A stretch of DNA of 64,000 bases from Escherichia coli (lineage in GTDB: Bacteria; Pseudomonadota; Gammaproteobacteria; Enterobacterales; Enterobacteriaceae). How positions within the stretch are numbered: the first letter of the stretch is position 1; every line of letters starts with the position of its first letter. Below the pieces are notes generated by a model. It ran no database searches, was not told the origin of the DNA, and saw only the letters and a program-made list of their open reading frames with translations. The stretch lies in assembly GCF_003018115.1 (NCBI RefSeq), contig NZ_CP027457.1; one strand, 5' to 3'. A program made the translations under genes and the position numbers. Positions 1 to 22,156 of this stretch are shown here, in pieces.

Positions 1-215
1 CGGCGCATCTCTGCGACCAGCTTCCTGACCACCGGGCGAACAACATCGAATTGTCCGCGATATTGCAGGGTGGTGTAGTTTGATAGCCAGTCATCCCATT
101 GCGACACTCGGCTAAAATACAGGTCATTTGTCGCCTCGGTTCTGGCTTCATCGCTCGCCATCCAGTCCGCGTCAAACTTACACAGAATGGAATTGAGTCT
201 GTTTTCGTCGGCCAT
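1..215 (-). CDS. Portal protein, N-terminal fragment (P22 gp1-like); gene continues beyond window start
   Basis: Minus-strand translation from ATG at 213-215 reads [63 protein letters not shown], recognised as a P22-type portal N-terminus; ATG abuts the terL stop. Confidence 0.75.
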
Positions 216-1715
216 TTAAGTTCTCCGTGCGATGGGCCTGATTGGGGCTGGTATCTTTTTCTCTTTTGGTTTTTTGATGTCGCGCATCATTTTGGCGAAG
301 CGGCGCATCATGTATGCATAGCGAACGGCTGAGAGAACGTCGTCGTTAAGCTTGACGATCTTCCCGTTTTCATCACGGTGATAGAGGCGGAATTCCTCAA
401 AGAATGGTTCACAGGTGTTGAATACCTTGAAGCGACCATCTAGCATCATGTCGCGCAATTCAGTGATTCCAGGCTCAACAGCATTACCGCCATCAGGCCA
501 TGTCGCATGCTCCTGCAACATCATAAATCCAGCGTCCGCATACTGCCCTTTGAGCTGCTCACCGCCGCCCTTCTCGTGCTGGTTTCCGTCATGGGGCCAT
601 GCGGTTGGCACTTTATGCGCCCATGGTTTAACGGCTCCCCACGCCTGAACGGCTGTCTTTTCTTTCGCCTTCCACACGCGTGAAAGGTAGATTATGTCTG
701 CGTCCTTATCCCACCAAAGCTGAACCTGCGCCTGTGGGTGATCCCATCCGAAATCCATCCCGCCAATTACGTAGAAGTGATCCGGACACTCGAACGGCTG
801 ACACTTAATCGTCTCTTCCGGTATCTGGAAGATTCGACCGCTACCCATCGTAGGAATACCGCGAGCACGCGCCTCTCTCTCATGCTCGGGATAGGATGCG
901 ATGATTTGCTCTTTTTGCTCGTCGGTGTAGTGCTCAGCGTCGTAGATGGTCATGTTGACCACTTTCTGCGACTTGCTGGGATTCTTCAGGAACTTGGTAA
1001 CAACGTCAGACATCCCCATCAGCGGGGTAAACGTCAGAATTGAGAATTGCCCGTATTTGTTGGTACGGGTAAGGCCTTCGCCATAAATGCTGTATGGTGG
1101 TTCTTCGTCAAACCACACGCCATGGATTGTATCACCCTGCCAGCGAGCACGGCCTTGCGAGTATGGCTTGAAGTAGCAGATTGAAATGCCATCTTCAACG
1201 CCATCAGCCGTGTGATGCTTAACCAGAAGATGATCAACAAGGTTCGGAAAGAAAGGAGACTTCTTCCAGCTAATGATGTCTTCTTTCGGTATGGAACCGT
1301 AGCCAGGCTCATCATTCTCTTCGATACGACCGCACAGGATGCGTTGAGTCGTTTTGGTTACCGTCTCGTTTGTCTCGCCGCCAATCCAGAAGACAACAGG
1401 CTCATAGAAACGCTTACCTTTCCACTCGCCGCCATATTTACCATCAGCAGGATAGCCTTTTGTGCCAGGATAACGCCCTGTAAGGTGAAACGCGACTTCA
1501 GCAGCGCCAGTAAATGACTTACCAAGCTGGTTACCAGCCATAAAACATCGCTCTGGATAGTCATGCCCGGCGTCGATGAACTCACGCTGTTTGCTGTATG
1601 GCGTAAATTCATACAGCAGGTGTGTGTTCCGGTAGTTCTCTTCTTCTTCGAGTAGATCGAGCAATTCGATTTGCTCTTCATCGCTCAGGTTATCAAGAAT
1701 CGCGTCCAGTTCCAC
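216..1715 (-). CDS. Terminase large subunit (P22 gp2-like, 499 aa)
   Basis: 499-aa ORF directly upstream of the portal; length and position match the P22 gene 2 arrangement; overlaps terS end. Confidence 0.85.
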
Positions 1716-2181
1716 GGTTGAATAGCTCCTTGATACGAGAGCGCCGCTTATCGCGATCTCCCTTATCAGGTGTCACGTCTTCAACTTGCGACTGCTCTTT
1801 GAGGCCCAAATCACGGGCGATGATGTTAGCGTTGAGAAGGTCAGCGGCTGCGCCAGAGAATTTCTGGTCGTAGATGACCTGCTCTGCTCGCGTAACGACT
1901 TCAGATAAATCTTCTCGCAGGCGATATGTGCGCCATGTTTCAAGCGTCACATCAATGAACAGAGTGAGGCCGGTGATGGTCATCGCTCGCATCTTGGCGA
2001 TAGGCTCTTGCATCACTTCCCCCTGATACGAGAACGCCTTCATCTCCCATAGCGGGTTAGCTTCCACCCACTCGAAGTATTCACAACAAGCAGCCCACAG
2101 CGCCTCAGGCGATTCGAATTTAGGGTTTCGCCCATGACTACTGCGGGCCTCCCAAAATCGGTTGCCCTTTGGTGCTGCCAT
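1693..2181 (-). CDS. Terminase small subunit (P22 gp3-like, 162 aa)
   Basis: 162-aa ORF immediately upstream of and overlapping terL; same size and position as P22 gene 3. Confidence 0.7.
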
Positions 2182-2260
2182 ATTGATTATTTCCCTTCTG
2201 CTTGCTTATCCCATTCATCGCGGAATTTGGATGGGTTGTCGAAACCTTGAGTTGCCATGA

Positions 2261-2503
2261 TTATGCTCCGGTGGTGAACAGGTCTAACACTTCCTTCGAT
2301 TTACGTACCGCTTCGATAGTGCGGGTCGTGATATCTGAATTAGCGCCGCCTGACTGGAAGTGAATTTTGAATAGCTCAAGCTTCAGCTCGTCAGTGCCAA
2401 TGAACTGAAATGCTTCTTCTGCGGCTGCGTTCTGGTTCATGACCAGTTTGTAAATCTCTAACTGGAATTTCTGTTCTTCAGTCATGGGAATAATCTCTGC
2501 CAT
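2261..2503 (-). CDS. Hypothetical 80-aa phage protein (orf80-like, upstream of terminase)
   Basis: 80-aa ORF between rha and terS, as in P22-like genomes; no function recognised. Confidence 0.5.
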   Translation of the reverse strand: MAEIIPMTEEQKFQLEIYKLVMNQNAAAEEAFQFIGTDELKLELFKIHFQSGGANSDITTRTIEAVRKSKEVLDLFTTGA

Positions 2504-2712
2504 TGTTGGCTCCGTTTATCCGTTAAAAGGGATATCAGTTAAGTTATCCCGTGCAGGGTATAAGCTATTGTCGAGACCACTCATTGAATGGTCTCTCCAT
2601 CAGTCCGCCACCACAAAGAATCTTTTTTGCCATAAGGCAGGAGGTTCATCTTTCAGTGGCTGCCAGTGTTATTTCCCCACTTACTGGCTTGGGTTGTTTC
2701 GTGGTACTGCCG

Positions 2713-3255
2713 TTAATTGGTGAGTCCGGGGATTACGGTTTGCCCGTGCTGTTCAAGGCGTTCAATTCTCGCCAGTAGCTGAGGCTTCTTAATTTTTCCC
2801 CAGCGATTAAGCAGGCGGCCTGACATGCTGGCAACATCCTTCTCTTTCATGTACTCCAGCATTACGGCATTTCTCTCTTCTTCAAATTGACGATGACCAA
2901 CCTGAAGCATGGCGTACATCCAGTTGAATGCGTTGATGTAAGCAATTTTGATACGCATTGCTTCTTTTTTGGTGTAGGACATAACCAAAAGCATCAACCC
3001 ATCCTTACGTAGCCGATAGAATTTTTGCGGCTTACCATTCTGTAACTCATTGTTTTTATAGCAAAGCTCAAAGTTGAGCTTTGTATCAAACTCAGGAGGG
3101 CAAGCTTCTATGGTTCGCTCAATGTCACGGACTACGTTCTTCGGCAGCTTTCCAAATGCTTTTGCCACCATAAAAGAATCTGTAACCGGATCGTTGTTTG
3201 CTACAAAAATTAGGTCTCTGAAATCTATATCGTTAACAACGGTTGGGTAGTTCAT
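2713..3255 (-). CDS. rha: Rha-family phage regulatory protein
   Basis: 180-aa ORF with motifs typical of the Rha family (KDGLMLLVMSYTKKEAMRIKIAYINAFNWM); sits between lysis cassette and packaging genes. Confidence 0.6.
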   Translation of the reverse strand: MNYPTVVNDIDFRDLIFVANNDPVTDSFMVAKAFGKLPKNVVRDIERTIEACPPEFDTKLNFELCYKNNELQNGKPQKFYRLRKDGLMLLVMSYTKKEAMRIKIAYINAFNWMYAMLQVGHRQFEEERNAVMLEYMKEKDVASMSGRLLNRWGKIKKPQLLARIERLEQHGQTVIPGLTN

Positions 3256-3601
3256 TGCGTCTTTACCTTTTAGAAAGATGAGCCTGTTCGCACAGAAAAG
3301 CCGTCCCCGAGATGGTCGCCACCATATACGGCAATTCTCAGGCTCAGCTTTCTGAAAGACTCGGGATTGTTACGCGCTGCGATGCGCGGTTTACTGCAGA
3401 TGTAAAAAAGCCCCGCTACTGCGAGGCTAAATCCTGGTGTTTGTGATGACTGGCCCTTATCTCAACGCAGCCCCTTACCGCGCGCCAGATGCTCAATATC
3501 AAGCATCAGCAATGAGATGTTTAATCTGGATTCACTCCAGAAGTGATCACCACCCTGTCTACAGAGCCAGATGTGAAGGATGATGAGTAGAATTATCGCT
3601 A

Positions 3602-4039
3602 TCATCGAAGGCATTGCGTCCTGATGTATTCCTGCAGGTAGTTAACCTGCGCGGTTATCCTGTCGATTCCACTTCGGAGACGGTAATAATTGAGTTCAGC
3701 ATCTGCTGTAAGTCTTGGGCTTTCTCCATCGCCCATGCTGCTGGCTCCGGTCGTTGACTTTGCACAGGTGGCGGAGACTTGCAGGCGCTTACGACCAACA
3801 GAAACATCAGCACGGAGACTTTCGATAGTCGCGTTAGCATCAGCAAGCTCCTTTGTGTATCTGGCGTCGAGTTCTGCTACATCACGTTGACGCTTCTGCA
3901 TATCAGCGATGATGGATGTGGCTTTGTCGCGCTGGTCTTTATAGGCGATGGCGTTATCACGGTAATGATTAACAGCCCATGACAGGCAGACGATGATGCA
4001 GATAACCAGAGAGGAGATAATCGCGGTTACTCTGCTCAT
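3602..4039 (-). CDS. Rz: Rz spanin (inner-membrane subunit)
   Basis: 145-aa ORF beginning [30 protein letters not shown] (lambda Rz-like N-terminus), overlapping the endolysin stop. Confidence 0.8.
3655..3846 (-). CDS. Rz1: Rz1 spanin (outer-membrane lipoprotein), embedded in Rz in another frame
   Basis: ORF nested inside Rz with signal peptide, lipobox cysteine (LLVVSAC) and proline-rich segment ([13 protein letters not shown]); true start probably an internal Met. Confidence 0.65.
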
Positions 4040-4512
4040 ACCTCAATCTCTCTGACCGTTCCACCTGCTTCTTTGAATTTTGCAATCAGGCTGTCTGCCT
4101 TATGCTCGAACTGACCATAACCAGCCCCCGGCAGTGAAGCCCAGATATTGCTGCAACGGTAGATAGCCTGACGAATATCGCCGCGATCAATCATCGGTAA
4201 AGCGCCACGCTCTTTAATCTGCTGCAGCGCAACAGCATCCTGGCTTTTCGGAGAGAAGTCTTTCAGGCCAAGCTGCTTACGGTAGGCATCCCACCAACGG
4301 GAAAGAAGCTGGTAACGTCCAGCGGCTGTTGATTTGAGTTTGGGGTTTAGCGTGACAAGTTTGCGAGGGTGATCGGAGTAATCAGTGAATAGCTCTCCGC
4401 CAACAATGACGTCATAACCATGATTTCTGGTTTTCTGACGTCCGTTATCAGTTCCCTCTGACCACGCCAGCATATCGAGGAACGCCTTACGTTGATTATT
4501 GATTTCCACCAT
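4036..4512 (-). CDS. R: Endolysin (lambda R-type lytic transglycosylase)
   Basis: 158-aa [42 protein letters not shown]..., recognised as lambda R. Confidence 0.9.
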
Positions 4513-4819
4513 CTTCTACTCCGGCTTTTTTAGCAGCGAAGCGTTTGATAAGCGAACCAATCGAGTCAGTACCGATGTAGCCGATGAACACGCTCGTTAT
4601 ATAAGCGAGATTGCTACTTAGTCCGGCGAAGTCGAGAAGGTCACGAATGAACCAGGCGATAATGGCGCACATCGTTGCGTCGATTACTGTTTTTGTAAAC
4701 GCACCGCCATTATATCTGCCGCGAAGGTACGCCATTGCAAACGCAAGGATTGCCCCGATGCCTTGTTCCTTTGCCGCTAGAATGGCGGCTAACAGGTCAT
4801 GTTTTTCTGGCATCTTCAT
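4496..4819 (-). CDS. S: Holin/antiholin (lambda S-type)
   Basis: 107-aa [37 protein letters not shown]..., recognised as lambda S including the dual-start MKM motif. Confidence 0.9.
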
Positions 4820-5225
4820 GTCTTACCCCCAATAAGGGGATTTGCTCTATTTAATTAGGAATAAGGTCGATTACTGATAGAACAAATCCTGGCTACTGTG
4901 TTTAGTAATCAGATTTGTTCGTGACCGATATGCACGGGCAAAACGGCAGGAGGTTGTTAGCGCAGCCTCTTGCCACCCGCTTTCACGAAGGTCATGTGTA
5001 GAAGGCCGCAGCGTAACTATCACTAATGAATTCAGGACAGCCAGTGGCTACGGCTCAGTTTGGGTTGTGCTGTTGCTGGGCGGCGATGACGCCTGTACGC
5101 ATTTGGTGATCCGGTTCTGCTTCCGGTATTCGCTTAATTCAGCACAACGGAAAGAGCACTGACTAACCAGGCTCGCCGACTCTTCACGATTATCGACTCA
5201 ATGCTCTTACCTGCTGTGCAGATAT

Positions 5226-5283
5226 AAAAAATCCCGAAACCGTTATGCAGGCTCTAACTATTACCTGCGAACTGTTTCGGGAT
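5226..5283 (-). terminator. tR'-type terminator of the late leader (6S) RNA
   Basis: Minus strand reads CCCGAAACAGTTCGCAGGTAATAGTTAGAGCCTGCATAACGGTTTCGGGATTTTTT (hairpin plus T-run), matching the lambda tR' context downstream of Q. Confidence 0.7.
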
Positions 5284-5424
5284 TGCATTTTGCAGACCTC
5301 TCAGCCTGCGATGGTTGGAGTTCCAGACGATACGTCGAAGTGACCAACTAGGCGGAATCGGTAGTAAGCGTCGCCTCTTTTTATCTCACTACCACAACGA
5401 GCGAATTAACCCATCGTTGGGTCA

Positions 5425-5453
5425 AATTTACCCAACTTTATTCAATAAGTCAA
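5425..5453 (-). promoter_or_regulatory. Late promoter pR' (-35 TTGACT, 17-bp spacer, -10 TAAATT) with overlapping Q-utilisation (qut) region
   Basis: Minus strand TTGACTTATTGAATAAAGTTGGGTAAATT just downstream of the Q stop. Confidence 0.65.
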
Positions 5454-5495
5454 TATTATGCCGTTAATATGTTGCCATCCGTGGCAATCATGCTG

Positions 5496-6119
5496 CTAAC
5501 GTGTGACCGCGTTAAAAATGTTGTCTGCGATTGACTCTTCCTTGTGGCATTGCACCACCAGAGCGTCATACAGCGGCTTAACAGTGCGTGACCAGGTGGG
5601 TTGGGTAAGGTTTGGGATTAGCATCGTCACAGCGCGATATGCGGCGCTTGCTGGCATCCTTGAATAACCGACGCCTTTGCATCTTCCGCACTCTTTCTCG
5701 ACAACTCTCCCCCACTGCTCTGTTTTTGCTATATCAACCGCACGGCCTGTACCGTGGCAATCTCTGCATCTTGCGCCCGGCGTCGCGGCACTACGGCAAT
5801 AATCCGCATAAGCGAATGTTGCGAGCACTTGCAGCACCTTTGCCTTAGTATTTCCTTCAAGCTTTGCCACACCACGGTATTTCCCCGATACCTTGTGTGC
5901 AAATTGCATCAGATAGTTGATAGCCTTTTGTTTGTCGTTCTGGCTGAGTTCGTGCTTACCACAGAATGCAGCCATGCCGAATCCGGCTTGTGATTGCGCC
6001 ATCCCCATAGCAGCCATCACATCAGTACCGGAAAGAGAGTCAGAAGCCGTGGCCCGTGGTGAGTCGCTCATCATCGGGCTTTTTGGCGAATGAAATTTAG
6101 CTACGCTTTCGAGTCTCAT
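5496..6119 (-). CDS. Q: Late-gene antiterminator Q (lambda Q-type, 207 aa)
   Basis: 207-aa ORF with zinc-binding motif CRDCHGTG...CGRCKG, positioned immediately upstream of pR' and the lysis genes. Confidence 0.85.
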   Translation of the reverse strand: MRLESVAKFHSPKSPMMSDSPRATASDSLSGTDVMAAMGMAQSQAGFGMAAFCGKHELSQNDKQKAINYLMQFAHKVSGKYRGVAKLEGNTKAKVLQVLATFAYADYCRSAATPGARCRDCHGTGRAVDIAKTEQWGRVVEKECGRCKGVGYSRMPASAAYRAVTMLIPNLTQPTWSRTVKPLYDALVVQCHKEESIADNIFNAVTR

Positions 6120-6304
6120 GGTCTTCCCCTCTTGCCCTGTTTGACCATCAGGACGCCGTTAACTATTACGTGACGCTCGCCTTTGCTGTCTCGGTTGTAC
6201 TTGAGCACTGTTCCTCTTGCGCAGGAAAGCATCCTCGCCACTTCGGTCTGATTGCCTCGTGTCTGGATAAGAAGCTCTGGTATCGTTTGAATTGTGGCGT
6301 TCAT
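6116..6304 (-). CDS. ninH: NinH-like protein
   Basis: 62-aa ORF with YGNQTEVARxLxCxRGTVxKY motif resembling lambda NinH; adjacent to Q. Confidence 0.6.
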   Translation of the reverse strand: MNATIQTIPELLIQTRGNQTEVARMLSCARGTVLKYNRDSKGERHVIVNGVLMVKQGKRGRP

Positions 6305-6663
6305 ACGTTCTCCAGTTCGGTGATTTTTATTCCAAGCCTTCCGCCTGGTACTTTCACACCACGAATTACGCGAATGTCATCGAATTGCTCGTCGTCTTCC
6401 GCAAATCCGGCGTGGATAAGGGAGTCGAGTAAACCCTTCAGGATGTTATCGAGGTCGCGGCGGCGGGAGTCTGGAACGTCTGCGATGACTTTGATGCGGA
6501 GTCGTGATTTGGTGAAAATATCTAACTTGAGTTGGCGGATGATTTGCTGAACGTCTTTTCGGTATTTCTGGCCTTTATCGCTGATGTAGTATTGGCTTCC
6601 CCGTCTTCGCCAGTAGGTATTCACCGACGGCGGGTATGGAAGCACAAACCGATATTCATTCAT
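6301..6663 (-). CDS. rusA: RusA-family Holliday junction resolvase
   Basis: 120-aa ORF with RusA signature (PPSVNTYWRRRG...RRRDLDN...GGRLGIKITE). Confidence 0.8.
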   Translation of the reverse strand: MNEYRFVLPYPPSVNTYWRRRGSQYYISDKGQKYRKDVQQIIRQLKLDIFTKSRLRIKVIADVPDSRRRDLDNILKGLLDSLIHAGFAEDDEQFDDIRVIRGVKVPGGRLGIKITELENV

Positions 6664-6950
6664 GACTTAACCTTCCCCTCCTTCAGCAATACCGCCTGCG
6701 TCCTGATCACGCCTTCGAGGTGGTAAAGTCTGGCGTCTTTGTTGTCGAGGTTATGGGTGCGTCGGTCGATTTCATCGTGACACGCGCTACAAGCCCATGC
6801 GCCGATCAGGTCGTCAGGCTTCATTCCCGTTCCGCAAATTCCAGCCATCCGGTAATGTGCCAGAACTGTAGTTTCAGGATTGCCATTGCATACGCCGTAA
6901 ATACGTACCTGGCATTCTCTGCCGCGTGCTTCTTTGCGTAGGTTAGCCAT
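6660..6950 (-). CDS. Cysteine-rich nin-region protein (DUF1364-like)
   Basis: 96-aa ORF with several Cys/His pairs, start/stop overlaps with neighbours. Confidence 0.5.
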   Translation of the reverse strand: MANLRKEARGRECQVRIYGVCNGNPETTVLAHYRMAGICGTGMKPDDLIGAWACSACHDEIDRRTHNLDNKDARLYHLEGVIRTQAVLLKEGKVKS

Positions 6951-7219
6951 TATGGTTCACTCCAGTAATTCTCAATTGCAGCAGCCATTCTCTGCATCCA
7001 CTCAGCCAGCTTTAACGCGGCTTCTCTTTCAGAACCACATTTAGGGAAATCCTTCATTTCCATGCTGGCCTTATATGTTCTGAATGCCAGGTCTCCGGTA
7101 ATAACCAGCTCCTGATCAAGCACCGAGCGTTTATTCCGGTGTTGAACGTAATAGACAGATTCAGTCCGCATTTCTTCTCTGTCTTTTTTGAAGGAAATAA
7201 GCTCAGAGAAATCACTCAT
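6950..7219 (-). CDS. Hypothetical nin-region protein (89 aa)
   Basis: ORF with ATGA start/stop coupling to neighbouring genes. Confidence 0.5.
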   Translation of the reverse strand: MSDFSELISFKKDREEMRTESVYYVQHRNKRSVLDQELVITGDLAFRTYKASMEMKDFPKCGSEREAALKLAEWMQRMAAAIENYWSEP

Positions 7220-7388
7220 CGTCTTCTTCCTCGTACATTGAGCTATTCGGATCGCTCATCAGTTCTGCGCAGCAGTGCTCACATACGTGAACTTCCAGCA
7301 CATGCAGCTTCTGACCGCAGTTAGCGCACGTTAAAGCCCGCTCGACGCTTTCTTTCTGGTATTGAAGGGATTGGGATGGGCTAAGCAT
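7212..7388 (-). CDS. ninF: NinF-like small zinc-ribbon protein (58 aa); absent from the supplied ORF track (below its length cut-off)
   Basis: Hand translation of minus strand: [58 protein letters not shown]; ATG overlaps upstream stop (TAATG) and stop overlaps downstream ATG. Confidence 0.55.
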   Translation of the reverse strand: MLSPSQSLQYQKESVERALTCANCGQKLHVLEVHVCEHCCAELMSDPNSSMYEEEDDE

Positions 7389-7753
7389 TATTGGATTCTC
7401 TGCATCATGAGAAAGACAATCATGGCGGCGCGGAGGGGATTTTCATGTATAACTCGCTTAGATTTACAGTAGGCCACACCGCGTGCACCCCACTCGTCTT
7501 CATCGAGATTGATAATGCTAATCCTGTATTTTTCAATAATCGGCCATGCGTCTGCTGGGTTTGCGCATGGGTTAAAGGATCCGCGCTCAACTTCTACTTC
7601 AACTGCGTCTCCGTTTACAATGTCTCCCTCAAATGAGACAAACACCATATCGCCATTCTCACCTTCTTTGTAATCCGGTGATCCGTTATGAATGGCTTCG
7701 AATACCGCCACGTTAATTTCAAAATCACTTAACTGTGAATAATCCATTGTCAT
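7388..7753 (-). CDS. Hypothetical nin-region protein (about 121 aa from internal Met; ORF extends to 7789)
   Basis: ORF 7388-7789; likely start MTMDYSQ at 7753 overlapping the ninE stop. Confidence 0.5.
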
Positions 7754-7926
7754 TTCCTCGCACGATGTCTTAGCCACCGGATATCCCACAGGTGAGCCGT
7801 GTAGTTGAAGGTTTTTACGTCAGATTCTTTTGGGATTGGCTTGCGTTTATTTCTGGAGCGTTTCGTTGGAAGGTATTTGCAGTTTTCGCAGATGATGTCG
7901 GTGATACTTCGTCGCTGTCGTCTCAT
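7750..7926 (-). CDS. ninE: NinE-like protein (58 aa)
   Basis: [51 protein letters not shown]... starting at ATG overlapping the ninB stop; recognised as lambda NinE-like. Confidence 0.5.
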
Positions 7927-8333: not shown

Positions 8334-8344
8334 TGAATACTCCT

Positions 8345-13576: not shown

Positions 13577-13684
13577 AACCAAAGAGTAGTTGGCTTTGGG
13601 GTGACGTGAAGTGCAGCTGCACGACGGCAACCGGAAGATAAGCACCCGGCGCGTCACCGCCAAAGTCAATCATCGGAGGTCAAC

Positions 13685-13990: not shown

Positions 13991-13995
13991 GGTTA

Positions 13996-14265: not shown

Positions 14266-14320
14266 AAGTGAGTATCCTTGTTTTACTTTTTCGCAGCAAA
14301 CCACTTATTTGAGGTGAGAT

Positions 14321-14572
14321 ATGGAATTTCATGAAAGTGCGATTTGTGATTTTCGCGCTAACGCAAATTCAGTAAAACCACAGCCAATTGCAGTTCTTTT
14401 TAAAACAATGGGTGCGTGGGCTGTTTTATGCTTCGCCGCTGATGACACTGACGCAAGAATGGCAATAGGCCAAGAGATGGAGATGGACCCGACAAACGAT
14501 GAATTCATAATTTATGGCGCTCCATCTAATTACTTACTTGATACCTGCAACATTTACAACAAGGCTGCCTGA
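14321..14572 (+). CDS. Hypothetical early protein (83 aa)
   Basis: ORF in pL operon between N and cIII. Confidence 0.5.
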   Translation: MEFHESAICDFRANANSVKPQPIAVLFKTMGAWAVLCFAADDTDARMAIGQEMEMDPTNDEFIIYGAPSNYLLDTCNIYNKAA

Positions 14573-14611
14573 TGGTGGCCTTTATTTTTGGCATAAACAA
14601 CAGAGGCTAAC

Positions 14612-14908
14612 ATGGAATTTAAAGGTACTAAAGGTAAGTGGGAAATAATGATTGATGGCGATGAGATTAAAATCATCCAGGCAGACTCACTTGAAAATGG
14701 CGCAGGCTGGCGTTCGTATATTGCAATCTGTGAGGAAGTTCAATGCATTGAAGATGCCAATCTAATAGCGGCAGCGCCTGACCTTCTCGAAGCACTTCAG
14801 TTATTACTTAAGCAAACCAAAAATAGAACAACGACAACATATCCAGAATGGTATGGAGCTGTTAATAAAGGTATCGCAGCAATCAGAAAAGCTCTTGGGG
14901 ATAAGTAA
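14612..14908 (+). CDS. Hypothetical early protein (98 aa) with IAAAPDLLEAL motif
   Basis: ORF in pL operon; motif recurs in lambdoid Ea22-like proteins. Confidence 0.5.
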   Translation: MEFKGTKGKWEIMIDGDEIKIIQADSLENGAGWRSYIAICEEVQCIEDANLIAAAPDLLEALQLLLKQTKNRTTTTYPEWYGAVNKGIAAIRKALGDK

Positions 14909-15096
14909 TGAAAGTAAAAATAACTGCTTCTAATACCAGTTTTGTTAGTGTTGGTGATATTACAGAAGTAATAACAAACCATGATGGAACACAAGTTATG
15001 TGGTCTGATTTTTGTAAAAGATATGAGCGAGTCACTTGGTGTAAACTCGTATGGGGAGTCGAATACGAAGAATTACCTGAAATGCATGACGAATAA
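14908..15096 (+). CDS. Hypothetical early protein (62 aa)
   Basis: ORF whose ATG overlaps the upstream stop. Confidence 0.45.
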   Translation: MKVKITASNTSFVSVGDITEVITNHDGTQVMWSDFCKRYERVTWCKLVWGVEYEELPEMHDE

Positions 15097-15191
15097 GCAC
15101 TGTGTATTCATTCCAACGAGTGAATACACGGAGCAATGTTGCTCGTAACTAAACAGGAGCCGACTTGTTCTGATTATTGGAAATCTTCTTT

Positions 15192-15216
15192 GCCCTCCAG
15201 TGTGAGGGCTTTTTTA
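15192..15216 (+). terminator. Intrinsic terminator (tL-like) between the small-ORF cluster and cIII
   Basis: GCCCTC-CAGTGT-GAGGGC hairpin followed by TTTTTT. Confidence 0.6.
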
Positions 15217-15281
15217 TATGCATACCAATAACGCTTCACTCGAGGCGTTTTCGTTATGCAATCAAACAGAAGGAGCATCCT

Positions 15282-15452
15282 ATGCAACAGTTCGCTATTG
15301 CAGGGGCGGCATCGGTTCGCCCTTTCAACCCGATTTTATCGGTACAGCATTCACGAAAAAACATTCTAACCGGAGCAGACTTTAAACAACCAAGAATGAA
15401 AAGTTTGCTCGAAAAGCTTTGGGATATTTTGAAACAACAAGGCCGCCCATGA
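15282..15452 (+). CDS. cIII: CIII-like protein (FtsH inhibitor)
   Basis: MQQFAIAGAASV...SLLEKLWDILKQQGRP parallels lambda CIII (MQYAIAGWP...LLERITRKL...); start is an internal ATG of the listed ORF. Confidence 0.65.
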   Translation: MQQFAIAGAASVRPFNPILSVQHSRKNILTGADFKQPRMKSLLEKLWDILKQQGRP

Positions 15453-15533
15453 GTTTTACAGATAGCTGGTCAGACGAAGAATTCATTCGTCAGATGAACA
15501 AAATGCTCAATCAGCACAAAGAACAGGAGAAAG

Positions 15534-15845
15534 ATGATGATTCTGACTCTGAATGATAAGCGTGAAATATCGCAAATAATCGCAAGTTTTACTGATGAAG
15601 ATTACGAACGAATCAACAGTGAAGTTGATCGCCTCTGCAAACGTTGCGACCCAATAAGCGAAATGCTTCGATCATATAAACCAGATGAACACACTAAGGA
15701 CGCTATCGACTGGCTGGAAGATGATGACTGTAACTATCAGGAAAAAGCCGCTGAATGGTTCTGGGATGCAATAACCGAAAGAGTTAAGGCTGAATATGCC
15801 TTCGCAATATTCAAACGCAGACATATTTATGGAGAAGCTGCATGA
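15534..15845 (+). CDS. Hypothetical protein (103 aa) at the gam/kil position
   Basis: Acidic ORF immediately upstream of and overlapping recT. Confidence 0.5.
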   Translation: MMILTLNDKREISQIIASFTDEDYERINSEVDRLCKRCDPISEMLRSYKPDEHTKDAIDWLEDDDCNYQEKAAEWFWDAITERVKAEYAFAIFKRRHIYGEAA

Positions 15846-16744
15846 GCAATATCGTTGAATTCGTTAAACAGCAAGAGCAGTTATTCTGCGGAGCATTGAC
15901 TGAACAGACGGTGACATGGGCTAAGGAAAGCCAGTTTGCAATTCAGTATTTCCAGAAAAACGATTACCTGGCTAAAACAGCACTGGCAAATCCAACCAGC
16001 GCACAGAACGCCATCATCAATGTTGCGGCGATCGGCATCACCTTAAACCCGGCCAGCAAACTGGCTTATCTGGTTCCTCGCGACGGCATGGTGTGCCTTG
16101 ATATCAGTTACATGGGATTACTTCATCTTGCGCAATCGACAGGATCAATTAAGTGGGGGCAATGCAAACTGGTGTACTCAAACGACACCTATGAATCAAA
16201 TGGCCTTGATTCAGCACCAACCCACAAATACAACGCATTTGGTGAGCGAGGCTCTATTGTTGGAGGTTATTGCACGGTTAAAACAGCAGATGGTGACTAC
16301 CTGACTGAAGAAATGAGTCTGGCAGAAATTAAAGCTGTGGAAGCAACGAGCAAGGCAAAGAATGGACCGTGGAAAACATTCTGGGAAGAGATGGCGCGTA
16401 AAACAATAGTTAAACGCGCCAGCAAATACTGGCCTAAAGCCCAGCGACTGGATAATGCCATTCACCTGCTTAACGAAGATGAAGGTGTGCATCAGGAACC
16501 AGTTATGCCGCACAAATCAGAGGAAGATATCCGCGAAGATGAACGGAAACGCCAGCAGGAAATAATGGATAAAGCACAACTTCTTTGCGATGAAATGTCT
16601 CAGGCAGAAAACATGGATGATTTGAAGCGATATTTTGCAGAAGCATATCGCCTGACATCTGGAATGAAATTGCAGCAGAACGTACAAGCCATTTACATAG
16701 AATGCAAAGCGAAACTGGAGGTTGCCAGTGAGCAAACTGTATGA
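15842..16744 (+). CDS. recT: RecT-family single-strand annealing protein
   Basis: 300-aa ORF; motif NGPWKTFWEEMARKTIVKRASKYWP matches the RecT signature. Confidence 0.8.
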   Translation: MSNIVEFVKQQEQLFCGALTEQTVTWAKESQFAIQYFQKNDYLAKTALANPTSAQNAIINVAAIGITLNPASKLAYLVPRDGMVCLDISYMGLLHLAQSTGSIKWGQCKLVYSNDTYESNGLDSAPTHKYNAFGERGSIVGGYCTVKTADGDYLTEEMSLAEIKAVEATSKAKNGPWKTFWEEMARKTIVKRASKYWPKAQRLDNAIHLLNEDEGVHQEPVMPHKSEEDIREDERKRQQEIMDKAQLLCDEMSQAENMDDLKRYFAEAYRLTSGMKLQQNVQAIYIECKAKLEVASEQTV

Positions 16745-17210
16745 AATAGCCAATGAATACGCAAAGCTGATGGATTCAGATTTAGAGCCAGAGATGATTG
16801 CTGACACAATAGAAGGCATGGAAGGAGAATTTACCGATAAAATAGAGCAACTTCTCGCCATTATTAAAAATGAATCTGGTTATGCTGAACGCCTCAAGGA
16901 AGAGGCAAAGTCACTAAATGAGAGAGCCGCAGTAATTCAAAATAAGATTGACAGCATTATGGCGTATATAGCGTCATCGCTTGAAATGGTTGGCAAGAAA
17001 AAGATTCGAGCAGGTATTCACCAGGTAACAATCCGCAAACCGTCAGAAACTGTAGAAATCATCGACTCAAGCGCCCTTCCTCCTGAATACGTTGAATTTG
17101 AAACGACAATTAAAGCCGACAAACTGGCAATCAAACACCAACTAAAAGCAGGAATAAATATCCCCGGCGCTCAACTCAAAGTTGGGAAACCTTCACTTCT
17201 TATCAAATAA
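16722..17210 (+). CDS. Siphovirus Gp157-family protein
   Basis: About 160-aa ORF overlapping recT end; resembles Gp157-family proteins that commonly accompany RecT/Erf genes; probable GTG start at 16728. Confidence 0.45.
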   Translation: MPVSKLYEIANEYAKLMDSDLEPEMIADTIEGMEGEFTDKIEQLLAIIKNESGYAERLKEEAKSLNERAAVIQNKIDSIMAYIASSLEMVGKKKIRAGIHQVTIRKPSETVEIIDSSALPPEYVEFETTIKADKLAIKHQLKAGINIPGAQLKVGKPSLLIK

Positions 17211-17221
17211 CGGTATCGCCT

Positions 17222-17536
17222 ATGAAAAAGACTCCATGGGAGAAATGGGAAGTCGATTTCTTGCGCGAAGTGGCGGCGACAATGCCAGTTGAAGTTATCG
17301 CTGAAAAACTGGAAAGGACTGAAAAAGCAGTAATGGCGAAAGCAACAAGGATTGGAGCTGACATTGTTAGCCGACTTCGTGGAAGACGCTGGACAAGAGC
17401 CGAAGTATCACTTTTCGGTAAGTTCTCCGCAGAAGAAATAGCAATTGCAACCTGCCGCTCAATTTATTCAGTAAGAGCTATGAGATACAAGCTAAAAAAA
17501 CTCGATGAAGAAAGAGCAGGCATACGAATAAATTAA
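17222..17536 (+). CDS. Hypothetical protein (104 aa) with two internal repeats (possible DNA-binding)
   Basis: Two similar segments (WEKWEVDFLREVA...AEKLERTEKAVMAKATRIG and RRWTRAEVSLF...TCRSIYSVRAMRYKLKK). Confidence 0.5.
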   Translation: MKKTPWEKWEVDFLREVAATMPVEVIAEKLERTEKAVMAKATRIGADIVSRLRGRRWTRAEVSLFGKFSAEEIAIATCRSIYSVRAMRYKLKKLDEERAGIRIN

Positions 17537-17552
17537 CATGGAGTAATTAACA

Positions 17553-17834
17553 ATGAAGCTAAACATAGACCTAGGCAAATATGTTATTACAGGAACCAAA
17601 CACGACCTGATTCTTAGTGAAAGAGGAATTATCAAAGAAGGTGAGAATGCAGGGAAAGAAACACTAAGCCGTATCGGTTATTACAGCAAGTTTGAGCATC
17701 TGGTTAAAGAGTTATGTAACCGTGAAATCCTGTTATCTCAGGCGCAGACGCTACAGGATATTCAGCAGCATATCGAAACTTTAGGTATGTCACTTAGCAT
17801 GGCTATTGACCAGTTCGTGGAGAGTAAATCATGA
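17553..17834 (+). CDS. Hypothetical protein (93 aa)
   Basis: ORF with RBS, in the early leftward operon. Confidence 0.5.
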
Positions 17835-17973
17835 GAGGACTTGCATACAATCCCGGCATTCTTCCGGCAGAAATGATTATTCGCCAACGCGTAAAACCAA
17901 TGCCATCGAGAGAGGAATTGCTTAAGAGAAATTCTTTTCCATCAGTGAATCAAAACAAATATCTGAATGCTAT

Positions 17974-18468
17974 GTGGCGGAGTGGGAAGAAATGAAACTA
18001 ATGTCACTAATTGAGATGGATGGTTTTCTGAAAGGTAAATGCATCCCACGAGATTTAAAGGTTAACGAAACAAACGCTGAATATCTGGTGCGTAAGTTCG
18101 GTGAGCTTGAATCAAAACTGGAAACGGCGTTGCGGGAGTGTCGTTCTGCTGGAATCACGATTGATAACCTTGAGGCTAAATGCGCGAAGATGGCTGCTGA
18201 AAATACCTCGCTTAAGCAATCTGAGAAGGAATTTAATGACTTTTGTCGTGAGGAGTTTAGCGAATGGGAAGATGATGTTACTGAACCCCAAGCCACCGAT
18301 GCTTTCCTGGCTGAAGTCCGGGCTAAGGCGTTTGATGACCTTTGCGCGGCGTTCGTTAAGCACGCGTCGGTGTCCGGGCTGGACGATGGCGACTGCGTTA
18401 CGGTGAAAGAGGCGACTGACGCCCTGCTGCATTGTGCGGAACAGCTTCACGAGGGAGTGCATTCATGA
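17974..18468 (+). CDS. Hypothetical acidic coiled-coil protein (about 158-164 aa)
   Basis: ORF; stop overlaps the next gene's ATG (ATGA). Confidence 0.5.
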
Positions 18469-18707
18469 GCAACCTACTACCATGTCCATTCTGTGGCGGC
18501 GCAGCGCACGTTGCCAGCGAAGCAGATCACCCTGAATATGGCTCTGGCGGTCGATTCTATTTCGTTCGATGCGGTACGTGTCGCGCTCAATCTGGTAGCA
18601 AATATGCAGCGCCTGGAAATGACTGCGCGATTTTTTATTCAGAGGTTAGAGCAGAGTGGAATCAGCGAGCAAAGGAGGCAACCAGTGAGCGGAAAAAGAA
18701 TGACTAA
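18465..18707 (+). CDS. lar: Lar-like restriction alleviation protein (CPFCGG zinc-finger)
   Basis: From ATG 18465: [42 protein letters not shown]..., the Cys pattern of the Lar family. Confidence 0.5.
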   Translation: MSNLLPCPFCGGAAHVASEADHPEYGSGGRFYFVRCGTCRAQSGSKYAAPGNDCAIFYSEVRAEWNQRAKEATSERKKND

Positions 18708-18909
18708 CAGAGAGCTTGTTGATGCCGCCATTAAGCTTGCTGGTGATTTTTATTCAATGATGGGGTACACGCATCGCCCAGGCTTCAAATATTGGGAGTC
18801 TCCGCACCCGCAAGAGCAACTGGTATTTCAAATGGCCTGCCGTGCTTTTGAGGTTATTCGCGGTTCTGATGTGATGGACGCCGTTGCCGACTTGGAGGAT
18901 GAAGAGTGA
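18685..18909 (+). CDS. Hypothetical protein (about 74 aa)
   Basis: GTG at 18685 preceded by AAAGGAGG; overlaps the Lar 3' end in another frame. Confidence 0.45.
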   Translation: MSGKRMTNRELVDAAIKLAGDFYSMMGYTHRPGFKYWESPHPQEQLVFQMACRAFEVIRGSDVMDAVADLEDEE

Positions 18910-19358
18910 GCAAGATTGACTATCAGGCACTGCGTGAAAAGGCAGAGAAAGCAACGTGTGGGGTGTGGTCGCTCGAATATGGAGAGGAGAGATTTGATGC
19001 TGATGATGCGCTAATTCATCGTGAAGTTGTTGGATATCTTCCCATTTGCAGAATTGAAGGAGCGCATCCAGAAAGCGGTTTCGATGAAGATTTCCAAATG
19101 GAACAGCAGGCCAATGCTGAATTCATCGCCGCAGCCAATCCAGCTACCGTGCTGGCGCTGCTGGATGAGCTGGAAGCCAAAGACAAGCGGATTGCTGACA
19201 TGGAGGCGCGGGAGGTTGTACTGCCGCGTGCGCACGATGTTCACCCATTAGGGCCGCAGGCGGCGAAAATTTTTTGTGAGTTTCACCGGAGTATCGTGAA
19301 CAGATGCGCCGATGAGATTCGCAAGGTTGGCATCAAAGTCAGCATCAAGGGGAATTAG
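18906..19358 (+). CDS. Ea22-like early protein
   Basis: 150-aa ORF with AAANPATVLALLDELEAKDKRIADME motif typical of Ea22-family proteins. Confidence 0.45.
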   Translation: MSKIDYQALREKAEKATCGVWSLEYGEERFDADDALIHREVVGYLPICRIEGAHPESGFDEDFQMEQQANAEFIAAANPATVLALLDELEAKDKRIADMEAREVVLPRAHDVHPLGPQAAKIFCEFHRSIVNRCADEIRKVGIKVSIKGN

Positions 19359-19362
19359 GGAT

Positions 19363-19896
19363 ATGGCTGAACTAACCAAAGAATGGCTGAAGCAAACTAT
19401 CGCTGAATACGAAGCCAATCGTGATGAATTACCGTTTGGACTGGATACCAACAGTGCCATTGGGCTTCAGGCGTTCAAGTTGGCGCTGGCATCGCTGGAA
19501 GCAGAGCCGGTGGCGTGGGAGGTAACCTTCACGCAAATTGACCGTGAATATAACACGTTCACTGGTATGTATCCTGACAAAGCAGAAGTCGAACGGTGGG
19601 TGCGTCTGCATAAAGCATGTAATTTTCGGGCAGATATAACACCGCTTTATACCGCCAAGCCAGTGCCGGTAACTCCGGATGGTTGGATAAGCTGTAGTGA
19701 GCGAATGCCGGAAAAGAATCAGAACGTGCTTATTTCGGTGAATTTCGATAGCTCTCTGGTTGAACCGCTAATATGCTCCGCACGCTATACAGGAAGCACA
19801 TTCCGGCGAGGGGAAGCAACGATTAAGCCGGGTAATGGTATTGAGCAGGCAACTCACTGGATGCCGCTACCAGAACCGCCGCAGGAGGCGAAATGA
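19363..19896 (+). CDS. DUF551-like phage protein
   Basis: About 177-aa ORF with C-terminal ATHWMPLPEPP motif seen in DUF551 prophage proteins. Confidence 0.5.
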   Translation: MAELTKEWLKQTIAEYEANRDELPFGLDTNSAIGLQAFKLALASLEAEPVAWEVTFTQIDREYNTFTGMYPDKAEVERWVRLHKACNFRADITPLYTAKPVPVTPDGWISCSERMPEKNQNVLISVNFDSSLVEPLICSARYTGSTFRRGEATIKPGNGIEQATHWMPLPEPPQEAK

Positions 19897-20153
19897 TGGA
19901 TGTAAAAGAGAAGGTTTTGCAGGTGATGCGTTCCCGGGCTGCCCTGCAAGATAAAGCTCTCGGCGGGGAATATCAATTCAGGATGGCAACCTGGAATCTG
20001 CGGTTGGCAATGGAGAAGGAATTTCCTGATGAAGAATGGCGTTCGGCAGATTTGCGCAAAATTCTTATGGAGCTGGCTAAAGACGGAGCAGTATCCAAAG
20101 ATACCTATGCCAGCCGGATTGGTCAGGCGGTATGGAGACTGGAGGTGCGGTAA
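19893..20153 (+). CDS. Hypothetical protein (86 aa)
   Basis: ORF with ATGA overlap to upstream gene. Confidence 0.5.
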   Translation: MMDVKEKVLQVMRSRAALQDKALGGEYQFRMATWNLRLAMEKEFPDEEWRSADLRKILMELAKDGAVSKDTYASRIGQAVWRLEVR

Positions 20154-20247
20154 TGGCTAACCTGCAACTTGCCGTCAAAGGTGAATAACAATCCTCGCAC
20201 TCGCGGGGATTTCTTTTATCTGAACTCGCTATGGCGGGTTTTGTTTT

Positions 20248-20559
20248 ATGGAGATGATTATGGCCTATTCAACATTCAACCCTTTAACGTTACAGAAATA
20301 CCAGACAGACCCTGAAGATTTATGCTCACTGTGTGGCGGAAATCATGGTAAAGCAGCCATGATCGAATGTAAGGACAAAATCCACATTTGCCTTAATTGC
20401 GTTGATGTCCTCGTTGATATCAAAAATGAAAGAGAAGATAAAAAGCGTAGCGAGGCTATTCGCGCCTTAGATTCATGGATGCGAGATGGGTATAGTGCTG
20501 CGCAAATTTATGACTTAGCCATTTCAAAAGGCGAAATACCAGGTGTGCGAATCGAATAA
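20248..20559 (+). CDS. Small Cys-rich protein (CxxC...CxxC; about 99-103 aa)
   Basis: Motifs CSLCGG and CLNCVD. Confidence 0.5.
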   Translation: MEMIMAYSTFNPLTLQKYQTDPEDLCSLCGGNHGKAAMIECKDKIHICLNCVDVLVDIKNEREDKKRSEAIRALDSWMRDGYSAAQIYDLAISKGEIPGVRIE

Positions 20560-20594
20560 GAAGCGCACTCAAGCATCTTTTGGAGAAATCACAA

Positions 20595-20762
20595 ATGCAC
20601 TTCCGAGTCACAGGTGAATGGAATGGAGAGCCATTCAACAGAGTTATCGAAGCAGAGAACATCAATGACTGCTATGACCACTGGATGATATGGGCGCAGA
20701 TAGCACATGCAGAAGTAACCAATATTCGAATTGAAGAACTGAAAGAACACCAAGCCGCCTGA
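20595..20762 (+). CDS. Hypothetical protein (55 aa)
   Basis: ORF MHFRVTGEWNGEPF... ending in an intrinsic terminator. Confidence 0.4.
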   Translation: MHFRVTGEWNGEPFNRVIEAENINDCYDHWMIWAQIAHAEVTNIRIEELKEHQAA

Positions 20763-20776
20763 TGGCGGTTTTTTCT
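20753..20776 (+). terminator. Intrinsic terminator upstream of xis
   Basis: GCCGCC-TGAT-GGCGG hairpin followed by TTTTTTCTT. Confidence 0.65.
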
Positions 20777-20801
20777 TGCGTGTAATTGCGGAGACTTTGC
20801 G

Positions 20802-21020
20802 ATGTACTTGACACTTCAGGAGTGGAACGCACGCCAGCGACGCCCAAGAAGCCTTGAAACAGTTCGTCGATGGGTGCGCGAATGCAGGATATTCCCACCA
20901 CCGGTTAAGGATGGAAGAGAGTATCTGTTCCACGAATCAGCGGTAAAGGTTGACTTAAATCGACCAGTAACAGGTAGCCTTTTGAAGAGGATCAGAAATG
21001 GGAAGAAGGCGAAGTCATGA
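20802..21020 (+). CDS. xis: Excisionase (lambda Xis-type)
   Basis: 72-aa ORF MYLTLQEWNARQRRPRSLETVRRWVRECRIFPPPVKDGREYLFHESAVKV..., recognised as lambda Xis; overlaps int start. Confidence 0.85.
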   Translation: MYLTLQEWNARQRRPRSLETVRRWVRECRIFPPPVKDGREYLFHESAVKVDLNRPVTGSLLKRIRNGKKAKS

Positions 21021-22068
21021 GCGCCGGGATTTACCCCCTAACCTTTATATAAGAAACAATGGATATTACTGCTACAGGGACCCAAGGACGGGTAAAGAGT
21101 TCGGATTAGGCAGAGACAGGAGGATAGCAATCACTGAAGCTATACAGGCCAACATTGAGTTATTTTCAGGACACAAACACAAGCCTCTGACAGCGAGAAT
21201 CAACAGTGATAATTCTGTTACGTTACATTCATGGCTTGATCGCTACGAAAAAATCCTCGCCAGCAGAGGAATCAAGCAGAAGACACTCATAAATTACATG
21301 AGCAAAATTAAAGCAATAAGGAGGGGGCTGCCTGATGTTCCACTTGAAGACATCACCACAAAAGAAATTGCGGCAATGCTCAATGGATACATAGACGAGG
21401 GCAAGGCGGCATCAGCCAAGTTAATCAGATCAACACTGAGCGATGCATTCCGAGAGGCTATAGCTGAAGGCCATATAACAACAAACCCGGTCGCTGCTAC
21501 TCGCGCAGCAAAATCAGAGGTAAGGAGATCAAGGCTTACGGCTGACGAATACCTGAAAATTTATCAAGCAGCAGAATCATCACCATGTTGGTTAAGACTT
21601 GCAATGGAACTGGCTGTTGTTACCGGACAGCGAGTTGGTGATTTATGCGAAATGAAGTGGTCTGATATCGTAGATGGATATCTTTATGTCGAGCAAAGCA
21701 AAACAGGCGTAAAAATTGCCATCCCAACAGCATTGCATGTTGATGCTCTCGGAATATCAATGAAGGAAACACTTGATAAATGCAAAGAGATTCTTGGCGG
21801 AGAAACCATAATTGCATCTACTCGTCGTGAACCGCTTTCATCCGGCACAGTATCAAGGTATTTTATGCGCGCACGAAAAGCATCAGGTCTTTCCTTCGAA
21901 GGGGATCCGCCTACCTTTCACGAGTTGCGCAGTTTGTCTGCAAGACTCTATGAGAAGCAGATAAGCGATAAGTTTGCTCAACATCTTCTCGGGCATAAGT
22001 CGGACACCATGGCATCACAGTATCGTGATGACAGAGGCAGGGAGTGGGACAAAATTGAAATCAAATAA
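20998..22068 (+). CDS. int: Tyrosine integrase (lambda Int-type, 356 aa)
   Basis: 356-aa ORF MGRRRSHERRDLPPNLYIRNNGYYCYRDPRTGKEFGLGRDRR..., recognised as lambda Int; transcribed toward the att junction. Confidence 0.9.
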   Translation: MGRRRSHERRDLPPNLYIRNNGYYCYRDPRTGKEFGLGRDRRIAITEAIQANIELFSGHKHKPLTARINSDNSVTLHSWLDRYEKILASRGIKQKTLINYMSKIKAIRRGLPDVPLEDITTKEIAAMLNGYIDEGKAASAKLIRSTLSDAFREAIAEGHITTNPVAATRAAKSEVRRSRLTADEYLKIYQAAESSPCWLRLAMELAVVTGQRVGDLCEMKWSDIVDGYLYVEQSKTGVKIAIPTALHVDALGISMKETLDKCKEILGGETIIASTRREPLSSGTVSRYFMRARKASGLSFEGDPPTFHELRSLSARLYEKQISDKFAQHLLGHKSDTMASQYRDDRGREWDKIEIK

Positions 22069-22141
22069 TGATTTTATTTTGACTGATAGTGACCTGTTCG
22101 TTGCAACAAATTGATAAGCAATGCTTTTTTATAATGCCAAC

Positions 22142-22156
22142 TTAGTATAAAAAAGC
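22142..22156. other. attL core (lambda 15-bp common core, complement of GCTTTTTTATACTAA) at the prophage-host junction
   Basis: TTAGTATAAAAAAGC preceded by lambda P'-arm-like sequence and followed by host AGGCTTCA. Confidence 0.8.

Follow-up and report, generated by a model that had tools for sequence, protein, structure and literature searches.

Near-identical stretches of DNA are what permits lambdoid phages to recombine with phage lambda. The described phages that come closest to the element considered here include lambda itself (NC_001416); HK97 (NC_002167), a siphovirus of the cos type; P22 (NC_002371); HK620 (NC_002730), a P22-like podovirus of Escherichia coli; HZ41 (OM022251, an unverified record), a member of Lederbergvirus; vB_EcoP-611R6 (611R6 below); and Gally (OV696608), a P22-like prophage of the adherent-invasive E. 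coli (AIEC) strain LF82. Gally is an active prophage for which lateral transduction has been documented, and in both Gally and P22 packaging in situ leads to lateral transduction downstream of attR (PMC9928086). In this study, we compared these systems with a prophage that occupies positions 1 to 22156 of a 64,000-nucleotide (nt) stretch of E. coli DNA (NZ_CP027457.1, assembly GCF_003018115.1), referred to below as the window.

We conclude, with a probability of roughly 0.93, that 1-22156 is the attL-proximal part of a temperate lambdoid prophage whose packaging is P22-like (Lederbergvirus-type). The prophage is integrated at the lambda site, with ybhC on one side and ybhB-bio on the other, in a strain near to O169:H41 enterotoxigenic E. 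coli (ETEC), and it is a patchwork of modules in circulation among the lambdoid phages of enterobacteria. Judged by sequence similarity, these modules are an int-xis-attP segment of lambda/HK97, the immunity region of HK620, O and helicase genes of the HK97 type, RecT and Gp157 genes of the Gally/611R6 type, a nin region of the HK97/HK620 type with rusA, lambda-type Q, pR', S, and R, an Rz/Rz1 pair of the HK97/P22 type, and P22-type packaging genes. By the same measure, the combination is new to the collections searched, which were finite, and every part of it is already known from described relatives.

Comparisons were made by local blastn and tblastn against lambda, P22, HK620, and HK97 and the three best phage matches, HZ41, 611R6, and Gally. 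Gene families were assigned from PHROG matches and from Pfam domains at curated cut-offs, together with PADLOC, Rfam at gathering thresholds, and ARAGORN for tRNAs, and sites were located by exact pattern matching against the annotated sites of lambda, P22, and HK620. The open reading frames (ORFs) of 1-24000 form two divergent gene blocks, the genes up to about 12100 being on the minus strand and those at 12215 to 22068 on the plus strand. PHROG matches were obtained for 48 of the 49 ORFs, in canonical lambdoid order; the sole ORF without one, at 8345-8536, is present in HZ41, 611R6, and Gally at 100% identity. The succession int-xis, recombination, N, cI, cro, cII, replication, nin, Q, lysis, and packaging was recovered without exception from the ORF map, PHROG, and Pfam, and the Pfam domains of int, xis, cI, cro, Q, the small and large terminases, the helicase, O, and Rha all scored above the curated cut-offs. 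Two segments of near-identical DNA are held in common with lambda, as is expected of a lambdoid phage: 3791-6129 (95% identical to lambda 46235-43875) and 20578-22156 (97.8% identical to lambda 29300-27724 by local blastn). Chance is not an issue in these comparisons because the matches are kilobases long, at 87 to 99% identity, with BLAST E values of 0. Every element named in a previous reading of the letters alone, which had proposed a mosaic lambdoid prophage (the sequence-only reading), was found where that reading had placed it.

At a threshold of at least 90% nt identity, the region is covered to 20% by lambda, 8% by P22, 27% by HK620, 36% by HK97, 48% by Gally, 49% by 611R6, and 56% by HZ41, and to 84% by all seven references jointly. 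The 56% reached by HZ41 is the best value for any single phage record on 1-22200, and the best complete E. coli genome covers 70% of 1-24000. A single parent was considered and rejected, no phage or genome record reaching 80% coverage. Uniform identity to one known phage was thus not seen, and the proposed mosaic character is upheld.

How the modules are shared differs from relative to relative. HZ41 matches at 96.4% identity over the covered part and shares the large terminase (99% amino acid identity), the portal start (100%), the lysis genes, Q, the helicase and O proteins (99 to 100%), and the HK620-type immunity (cI, 100%), but its small terminase is only 81% identical, it lacks the lambda int/xis and RecT/Gp157 genes, and its accessory regions are different. 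P22 shares the small terminase (161 of 162 amino acids [aa]), an identical pac site, the large terminase (93%), the portal start (86%), Orf80 (98%), the helicase (90%), Q (97%), Rz (90%), and the overall gene order, whereas it has its own integrase and att site, C2 immunity, Erf and Abc recombination functions, the gp19 lysozyme, and the gp18 initiator (50% identity). With lambda, the prophage has in common int, xis, the attP core and P' arm, Q, pR', S, R, attB, and the regulatory logic; the immunity, N, lambda P (against a DnaB-type helicase), Red, Rz/Rz1, and cos-type packaging of lambda are different or absent.

HK97 shares int, xis, O, helicase, and orf53 at 100% aa identity, the same att core, rusA, ninH, and S-R-Rz at 96.5% nt identity, yet it is a cos siphovirus with a different terminase, portal, and immunity and an Erf recombinase. 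The likeness to HK620 lies in the immunity region from cII to the 5' part of N (98.6% nt identity, with exact operators and nut sites) and in the predicted standing of the prophage as another P22-like E. coli podovirus; HK620 differs in its IntS-type integrase, its helicase (31%), its terminase (no match), and its recombination genes. Gally resembles the prophage in xis (99%) and int (75%), which form a lambda-family pair, in RecT/Gp157, the lysis block, and Q, and in being of the pac type, and departs from it in its Sf6/HK620-type terminase, P22 C2-type immunity, and divergent integrase allele.

The integration end of the prophage contains three features:

22065-22156, minus strand: attL, consisting of the P' arm and the 15-bp core; 92 bp identical to lambda 27724-27815, up to the int stop codon
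20998-22068, plus strand: int, 356 aa; 99% aa identity to lambda and 100% to HK97; Pfam Arm-DNA-bind_1 and Phage_integrase
20802-21020, plus strand: xis; 99% aa identity to lambda and 100% to HK97; Pfam Exc

The plus strand at 22142-22156 reads TTAGTATAAAAAAGC, the reverse complement of the lambda core GCTTTTTTATACTAA, and the junction sequence on the minus strand, TGAAGCCTGCTTTTTTATACTAAGTTGGCATTATAAAAAAGCATTGC, has the B-O-P' arrangement of lambda attL. The final base of the core is exactly 22156, the end that had been proposed for the element. Beyond it lie host B-arm sequence and the ybhC ORF (22203-23486), followed by ybhJ, ybhI, mod, gal, aroG, nadA, and the lysT-valT tRNA cluster. A prophage of the lambda type has its int on the gal side of attB-lambda, and this flank is that side. 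A core adjoining ybhC, an exact P' arm, and an Int with an arm-binding domain characterize the lambda Int/Xis system, and all three were found here, bearing out the claims that int and xis are of the lambda type and that integration used the lambda attB core beside ybhC.

At the opposite end of the prophage part, the window holds the packaging module and two adjoining genes. These were also compared with the best-matching prophage of a relative, strain P393-F10.

3-215, minus strand: portal gene, first 71 codons, running off the left end of the window; 86% aa identity to P22 gp1 and 100% to HZ41; PHROG 156
216-1715, minus strand: large terminase, 499 aa, P22 gp2 type; 93% aa identity to P22 gp2 and 99% to HZ41; Pfam Terminase_6N and Terminase_6C
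1693-2181, minus strand: small terminase, 162 aa, P22 gp3 type; 161 of 162 aa identical to P22 gp3; Pfam GP3_package
1893-1914, minus strand: pac site GAAGATTTATCTGAAGTCGTTA, identical at 22 of 22 positions to the pac site annotated at P22 positions 4-25
2261-2503, minus strand: orf80, DUF2560 family; 98% aa identity to P22 Orf80; PHROG 571; the P393-F10 homologue is annotated as DUF2560
2713-3255, minus strand: Rha-family regulator, 180 aa; Pfam Phage_pRha and ORF11CD3; PHROG 518; only 56% aa identity to P22 Rha

A gp3/gp2-type terminase with pac inside gene 3, the arrangement that marks Lederbergvirus, is therefore present. The module (1-2187, minus strand) is a mosaic in its own right. Between 2187 and about 800, which takes in the small terminase gene and the first two thirds of the large, it is 91 to 99% identical to P22 in nucleotides; from about 800 down to 1, comprising the last third of the large terminase gene and the portal start, identity is 67 to 82% to P22 versus 95 to 100% to HZ41. 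The small terminase gene of HZ41 itself diverges around the pac region. The position of the portal start is concordant with the P393-F10 annotation, and the portal start has no match in lambda or HK97. The P22-type block of small terminase, large terminase, and portal start occurs at a coverage of at least 80% in 250 of 5426 complete E. coli genomes. The P22 pattern that had been ascribed to the terminases, the portal N terminus, and orf80 is clear from these identities. It had been extended to rha as well; the protein does belong to the Rha family, but it is a divergent allele, and none of the seven reference phages matches its N-terminal part in nucleotides.

The two gene blocks diverge within an immunity region comprised of the following features:

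12215-12931, plus strand: cI repressor, 238 aa; 100% aa identity to HK620 cI and 43% to lambda cI; Pfam HTH_3 and Peptidase_S24
11914-12108, minus strand: cro; 100% aa identity to HK620 Cro; Pfam Cro
12139-12204: operators OR1 (12139-12155), OR2 (12164-12180), and OR3 (12188-12204), with pR; exact copies of the sites annotated in HK620
13448-13464, 13473-13489, and 13462-13497: OL2, OL1, and pL, respectively; exact HK620 matches, pL also by promoter scan
13536-13577: nutL, an exact match to the HK620 annotation
11862-11907, minus strand: nutR, an exact match to the annotated HK620 nutR
11527-11805, minus strand: cII-type activator; PHROG 191 from residue 30 of a longer ORF; 98% aa identity to HK620 cII
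11529-11561, opposite strand to cII: oop-like terminator, from a terminator scan
12949-13317, plus strand: hkaS homologue, 122 aa, a predicted membrane protein; 99% aa identity to HK620 hkaS; PHROG 6534
13685-13990, plus strand: N-type antiterminator with an arginine-rich N terminus; PHROG 271

Across 11483-13876, which includes cII, cro, cI, hkaS, OL, nutL, and the 5' part of N, the sequence is 98.6% identical to that of HK620 without a single indel; no exact match to HK620 OL3 was found. The N gene is HK620-like up to 13876, and its 3' part resembles those of HZ41, 611R6, and Gally. Identical repressor, Cro, and operators define homoimmunity, and on these features the prophage appears to belong to the HK620 immunity group. 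The sequence-only reading had described the repressor, operators, and N as different from those of lambda. This is correct, the operators and nut sites not being those of lambda, but it is too weak a statement: the region is specifically that of HK620.

The hkaS homologue, the translation of which contains four hydrophobic stretches, lies directly after cI and ahead of OL. Lambda keeps rexAB at the position between cI and OL. The hkaS homologue is a candidate for an exclusion gene expressed in the lysogen.

The replication genes and the nin region follow on the minus strand:

10523-11344, minus strand: O-like replication initiator, 273 aa; 100% aa identity to HK97 O, 50% to P22 gp18, and 41% to lambda O; Pfam Phage_rep_O
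10923-11005, inside the O-like gene: putative origin of four iterons at a spacing of 20 to 24 bp, from a repeat search; same position as the annotated lambda and P22 origins
9150-10526, minus strand: DnaB-type replicative helicase, 458 aa; 100% aa identity to HK97 P and 90% to P22 gp12; Pfam DnaB and DnaB_C
6116-9077, minus strand: nin region with ninH, rusA, a 96-aa ORF, an 89-aa ORF, ninF, a ninX-like 133-aa ORF, ninE, ninB, and three small ORFs, from PHROG matches

Replication had been described as P22-type, a description that stands for the kind of system and not for its sequence. Identity to gp12 is 90% for the helicase, but no comparable closeness to gp18 is seen for the initiator, and the block as a whole is the allele of HK97: 9122-11517 is 98.2% identical to HK97 in nucleotides, and the helicase, the O-like initiator, and orf53 are all 100% identical in amino acids. 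As far as homology indicates, the mechanism class is that of P22, in which an O-like initiator is paired with the phage's own DnaB-type helicase. The iteron array may serve as the origin. In the nin region, ninH, rusA, and the 96-aa ORF are about 96% identical in nucleotides to HK97 and HK620, and other parts match 611R6, HZ41, or Gally piecewise.

Late control and lysis are encoded between the nin region and rha:

5496-6119, minus strand: Q late antiterminator, 207 aa; 99% aa identity to lambda Q and 97% to P22 gp23; Pfam Antiterm
5425-5453, minus strand: late promoter pR', TTGACT-17 nt-TAAATT, from a promoter scan; aligns with the HK620 pR' annotated at 15560-15595
4496-4819, minus strand: S holin/antiholin, 107 aa; 99% aa identity to lambda S; PHROG 126
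4036-4512, minus strand: R endolysin of the lambda type; 98% aa identity to lambda R; no match to P22 gp19
3602-4039, minus strand: Rz i-spanin, 145 aa, HK97/P22 type; 97% aa identity to HK97, 90% to P22 gp15, and 57% to lambda
3655-3840, minus strand: Rz1 o-spanin, 61 aa, embedded in the +1 frame of Rz; lipoprotein-like N terminus LLVVSAC, from the frame translation

Q, S, and R are of the lambda type, as had been proposed. A recombination scar had also been suspected inside the Rz/Rz1 region. In a 50-nt sliding profile, identity to lambda is 94 to 100% down to about 3950 and 54 to 80% thereafter, placing the break about 90 nt into Rz, and identity to P22 is 90 to 100% from about 4000 to 3611. 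The junction is thus real relative to lambda and P22, but it is not a scar made in this prophage: HK97 (96.5% nt identity) and Gally (96.9%) match contiguously across S-R-Rz. Since HK97 and Gally carry the same block, the junction is inherited, widely shared, and old.

The remaining phage genes, from N to xis, are small accessory ORFs and a recombination module:

13996-15452, plus strand: ORFs between N and cIII, with cIII; small, with PHROGs of unknown function; patchy matches to APC_JM3.2, mEp043, HK106, and Gally
13996-15096, plus strand: the four small ORFs of this group; PHROGs 11941, 2471, 1273, and 10407, all of unknown function
15282-15452, plus strand: cIII; PHROG 550
15534-17210, plus strand: recombination module of a 103-aa ORF, RecT, and a Gp157/Mu Gam-like protein; 87 to 100% aa identity to 611R6 and Gally
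15842-16744, plus strand: RecT; PHROG matches 148 and 253 for the RecT/Gp157 module
16722-17210, plus strand: Gp157/Mu Gam-like protein, in the recombination module with RecT
17222-20762, plus strand: ea-type accessory region of about ten small ORFs, including Ea22-like ORFs, from PHROG matches; patchy matches to ST104, Sf6, IME10, and Stx phages
20595-20762, plus strand: lambdap35 homologue, within the ea-type region

By tblastn, the RecT/Gp157 module is absent from lambda, which has Red instead, and from P22, which has Erf. Known defence or other domains were considered for the hkaS homologue, the ORFs between N and cIII, and the ea ORFs and were rejected, no significant match to Pfam or PADLOC being obtained for any of them. 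An Acyl_transf_3 assignment for a 63-aa ORF was likewise dismissed as a lone Pfam line below the cut-off (E = 0.01). Rfam yielded no RNA family within 1-22156, all of its matches in the window lying in the host part, and ARAGORN found no tRNA in the prophage part.

Several points weigh against our conclusion. About 16% of the region has no match of at least 90% identity in the seven references and only patchy matches in other lambdoid phages; this fraction consists of the N-terminal part of Rha, part of nin, the ORFs between N and cIII, and the ea ORFs, with patchy relatives in APC_JM3.2, mEp043, HK106, ST104, Sf6, IME10, and Stx phages. Just the first 71 portal codons are in the window, the P22-like virion genes, the tailspike gene, and attR being expected beyond its edge, and we only infer membership of the P22-like virion group, from those 71 residues. 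In addition, every mechanistic step proposed below is carried over from well-studied homologues. The P393-F10 prophage offers a guide to what lies outside. It contains portal, scaffold, coat, gp4, gp10, needle, and ejection protein genes, an immI-like region (arc, ant), and a tailspike gene, and it ends with a lambda core between the tailspike gene and ybhB, 90 bp from ybhB, after which comes bioA. The part of the prophage left of the window is expected to have this layout, with which the earlier placing of the right arm and attR outside the window is consistent.

The same boundary gives room to the idea that the element is a defective or cryptic remnant, its virion half or attR deleted or disrupted outside the window, so that it neither excises nor forms particles. 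Cryptic lambdoid remnants are common in E. coli, and at this site the sister O169:H41 genomes have another lambdoid element. However, every visible gene is full length: int (356 aa), cI (238 aa), the helicase (458 aa), and the small and large terminases (162 and 499 aa) are as long as their functional homologues, as are Q (207 aa), S (107 aa), R (158 aa), and Rz (145 aa), and neither an insertion sequence (IS) element nor a frameshift was seen. In P393-F10, the related prophage that occupies this site is complete as far as attR. We regard a remnant as improbable, though with a real if small chance of being correct. A lambda-like siphovirus that has acquired a P22-type terminase would account for integration, late control, and lysis genes of the lambda/HK97 type and for the 36% of the region shared with HK97, itself a siphovirus, but the portal start is of the P22 type and has no counterpart in lambda or HK97. 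Terminase and portal must interact, and all relatives with this terminase-portal block (HZ41, IME10, and P393-F10) have P22-like virion genes, making a siphovirus very unlikely.

Finally, the patchwork might have arisen during assembly, through the collapse of several resident lambdoid prophages into a single contig. The several lambdoid prophages of E. coli genomes have long repeats in common, and the median E. coli genome has 20 places that match the prophage query. Nevertheless, for each junction there is at least one independent record that reads across it: HZ41 for 1-2723 and 8825-13953, Gally for 3251-4990, 611R6 for 7712-13600 and 15220-18104, and both lambda and HK97 for 20578-22156, as far as the att core. 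The gene order is canonical, and no ORFs are broken at the junctions. The likelihood of a misassembly appears slighter still than that of a siphovirus, and a temperate, P22-like pac-type prophage at the lambda site is the reading that we retain.

For such a prophage, the homologies support the following model of the lysogenic and lytic states. The HK620-specific CI would repress pL and pR, and SOS-triggered autocleavage of CI via its S24 domain would lead to derepression. N would then antiterminate at nutL and nutR, Int and Xis would recombine attL with attR, and the O-like initiator would bind the four intragenic iterons and recruit the phage's own DnaB-type helicase. Q is predicted to act at pR', allowing readthrough into the late genes, and S, R (a transglycosylase), Rz, and Rz1 would lyse the cell. 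The gp3/gp2-type terminase would cut at pac in gene 3, with headful packaging proceeding along the direction of late transcription, toward lower coordinates (attR and bio). Packaging in situ would in this case laterally transduce the bio-uvrB side. A more far-reaching reading is that of an intact, inducible podovirus with lambda attachment, HK620 immunity, and P22 pac headful packaging that laterally transduces the bio-uvrB-moa side in an ETEC-related lineage and carries an undescribed exclusion or anti-defence gene, for which the ORFs at 12949-13317 or 13996-15096 are candidates; so much in conjunction is doubtful, and we put it forward tentatively.

The region is a textbook case of modular (mosaic) lambdoid evolution, ordinary in kind, and it matters little beyond annotation. 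It is useful for attaching the correct label, that of a prophage which is P22-like and of the pac type, has lambda Int and HK620 immunity, and sits at attB-lambda. Should it be intact, the orientation of pac predicts lateral transduction of the bio-uvrB side, which would not be surprising.

Comparison of the host flank with O169:H41 ETEC genomes such as F9792 (NZ_CP024273; compared over window positions 20578-58001) revealed 4 differing positions in 23.8 kb (99.98% identity). The lambdoid prophage at the same attB in these genomes is another one, which carries lambda Red, O/P, ren, emrE, and ybcK, and only the int-xis end is common to the two (97.8%). Closely related ETEC-type chromosomes can thus hold entirely different lambdoid prophages at one attachment site. 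We considered whether a crossover inside int had replaced a resident of the F9792 type, the two sequences being identical from 21829 on and 2.2% different before that point, and rejected it because lambda and HK97 show the same invariance over 21829-22156, a matter of conservation.

Elsewhere in the host part, 58000-63748 is AT-rich (GC content, 0.36 to 0.41) and contains two unnamed ORFs on the plus strand (58452-59396 and 59477-59899), which lie upstream of glmS, glmL, and glmE (60384-63748), the genes for methylaspartate (glutamate) mutase, beside cydA. The block from 57 to 64 kb was found at a coverage of at least 80% in only 1129 of 5426 complete E. coli genomes and is therefore an accessory island. 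The lysT-valT-lysW cluster (47593-49615, minus strand) contains five tRNA-Lys genes, two tRNA-Val genes, and two RtT repeats, and together with a CpoB/ybgF thermometer element at 49477-49615 it belongs to the ordinary E. coli core genome.

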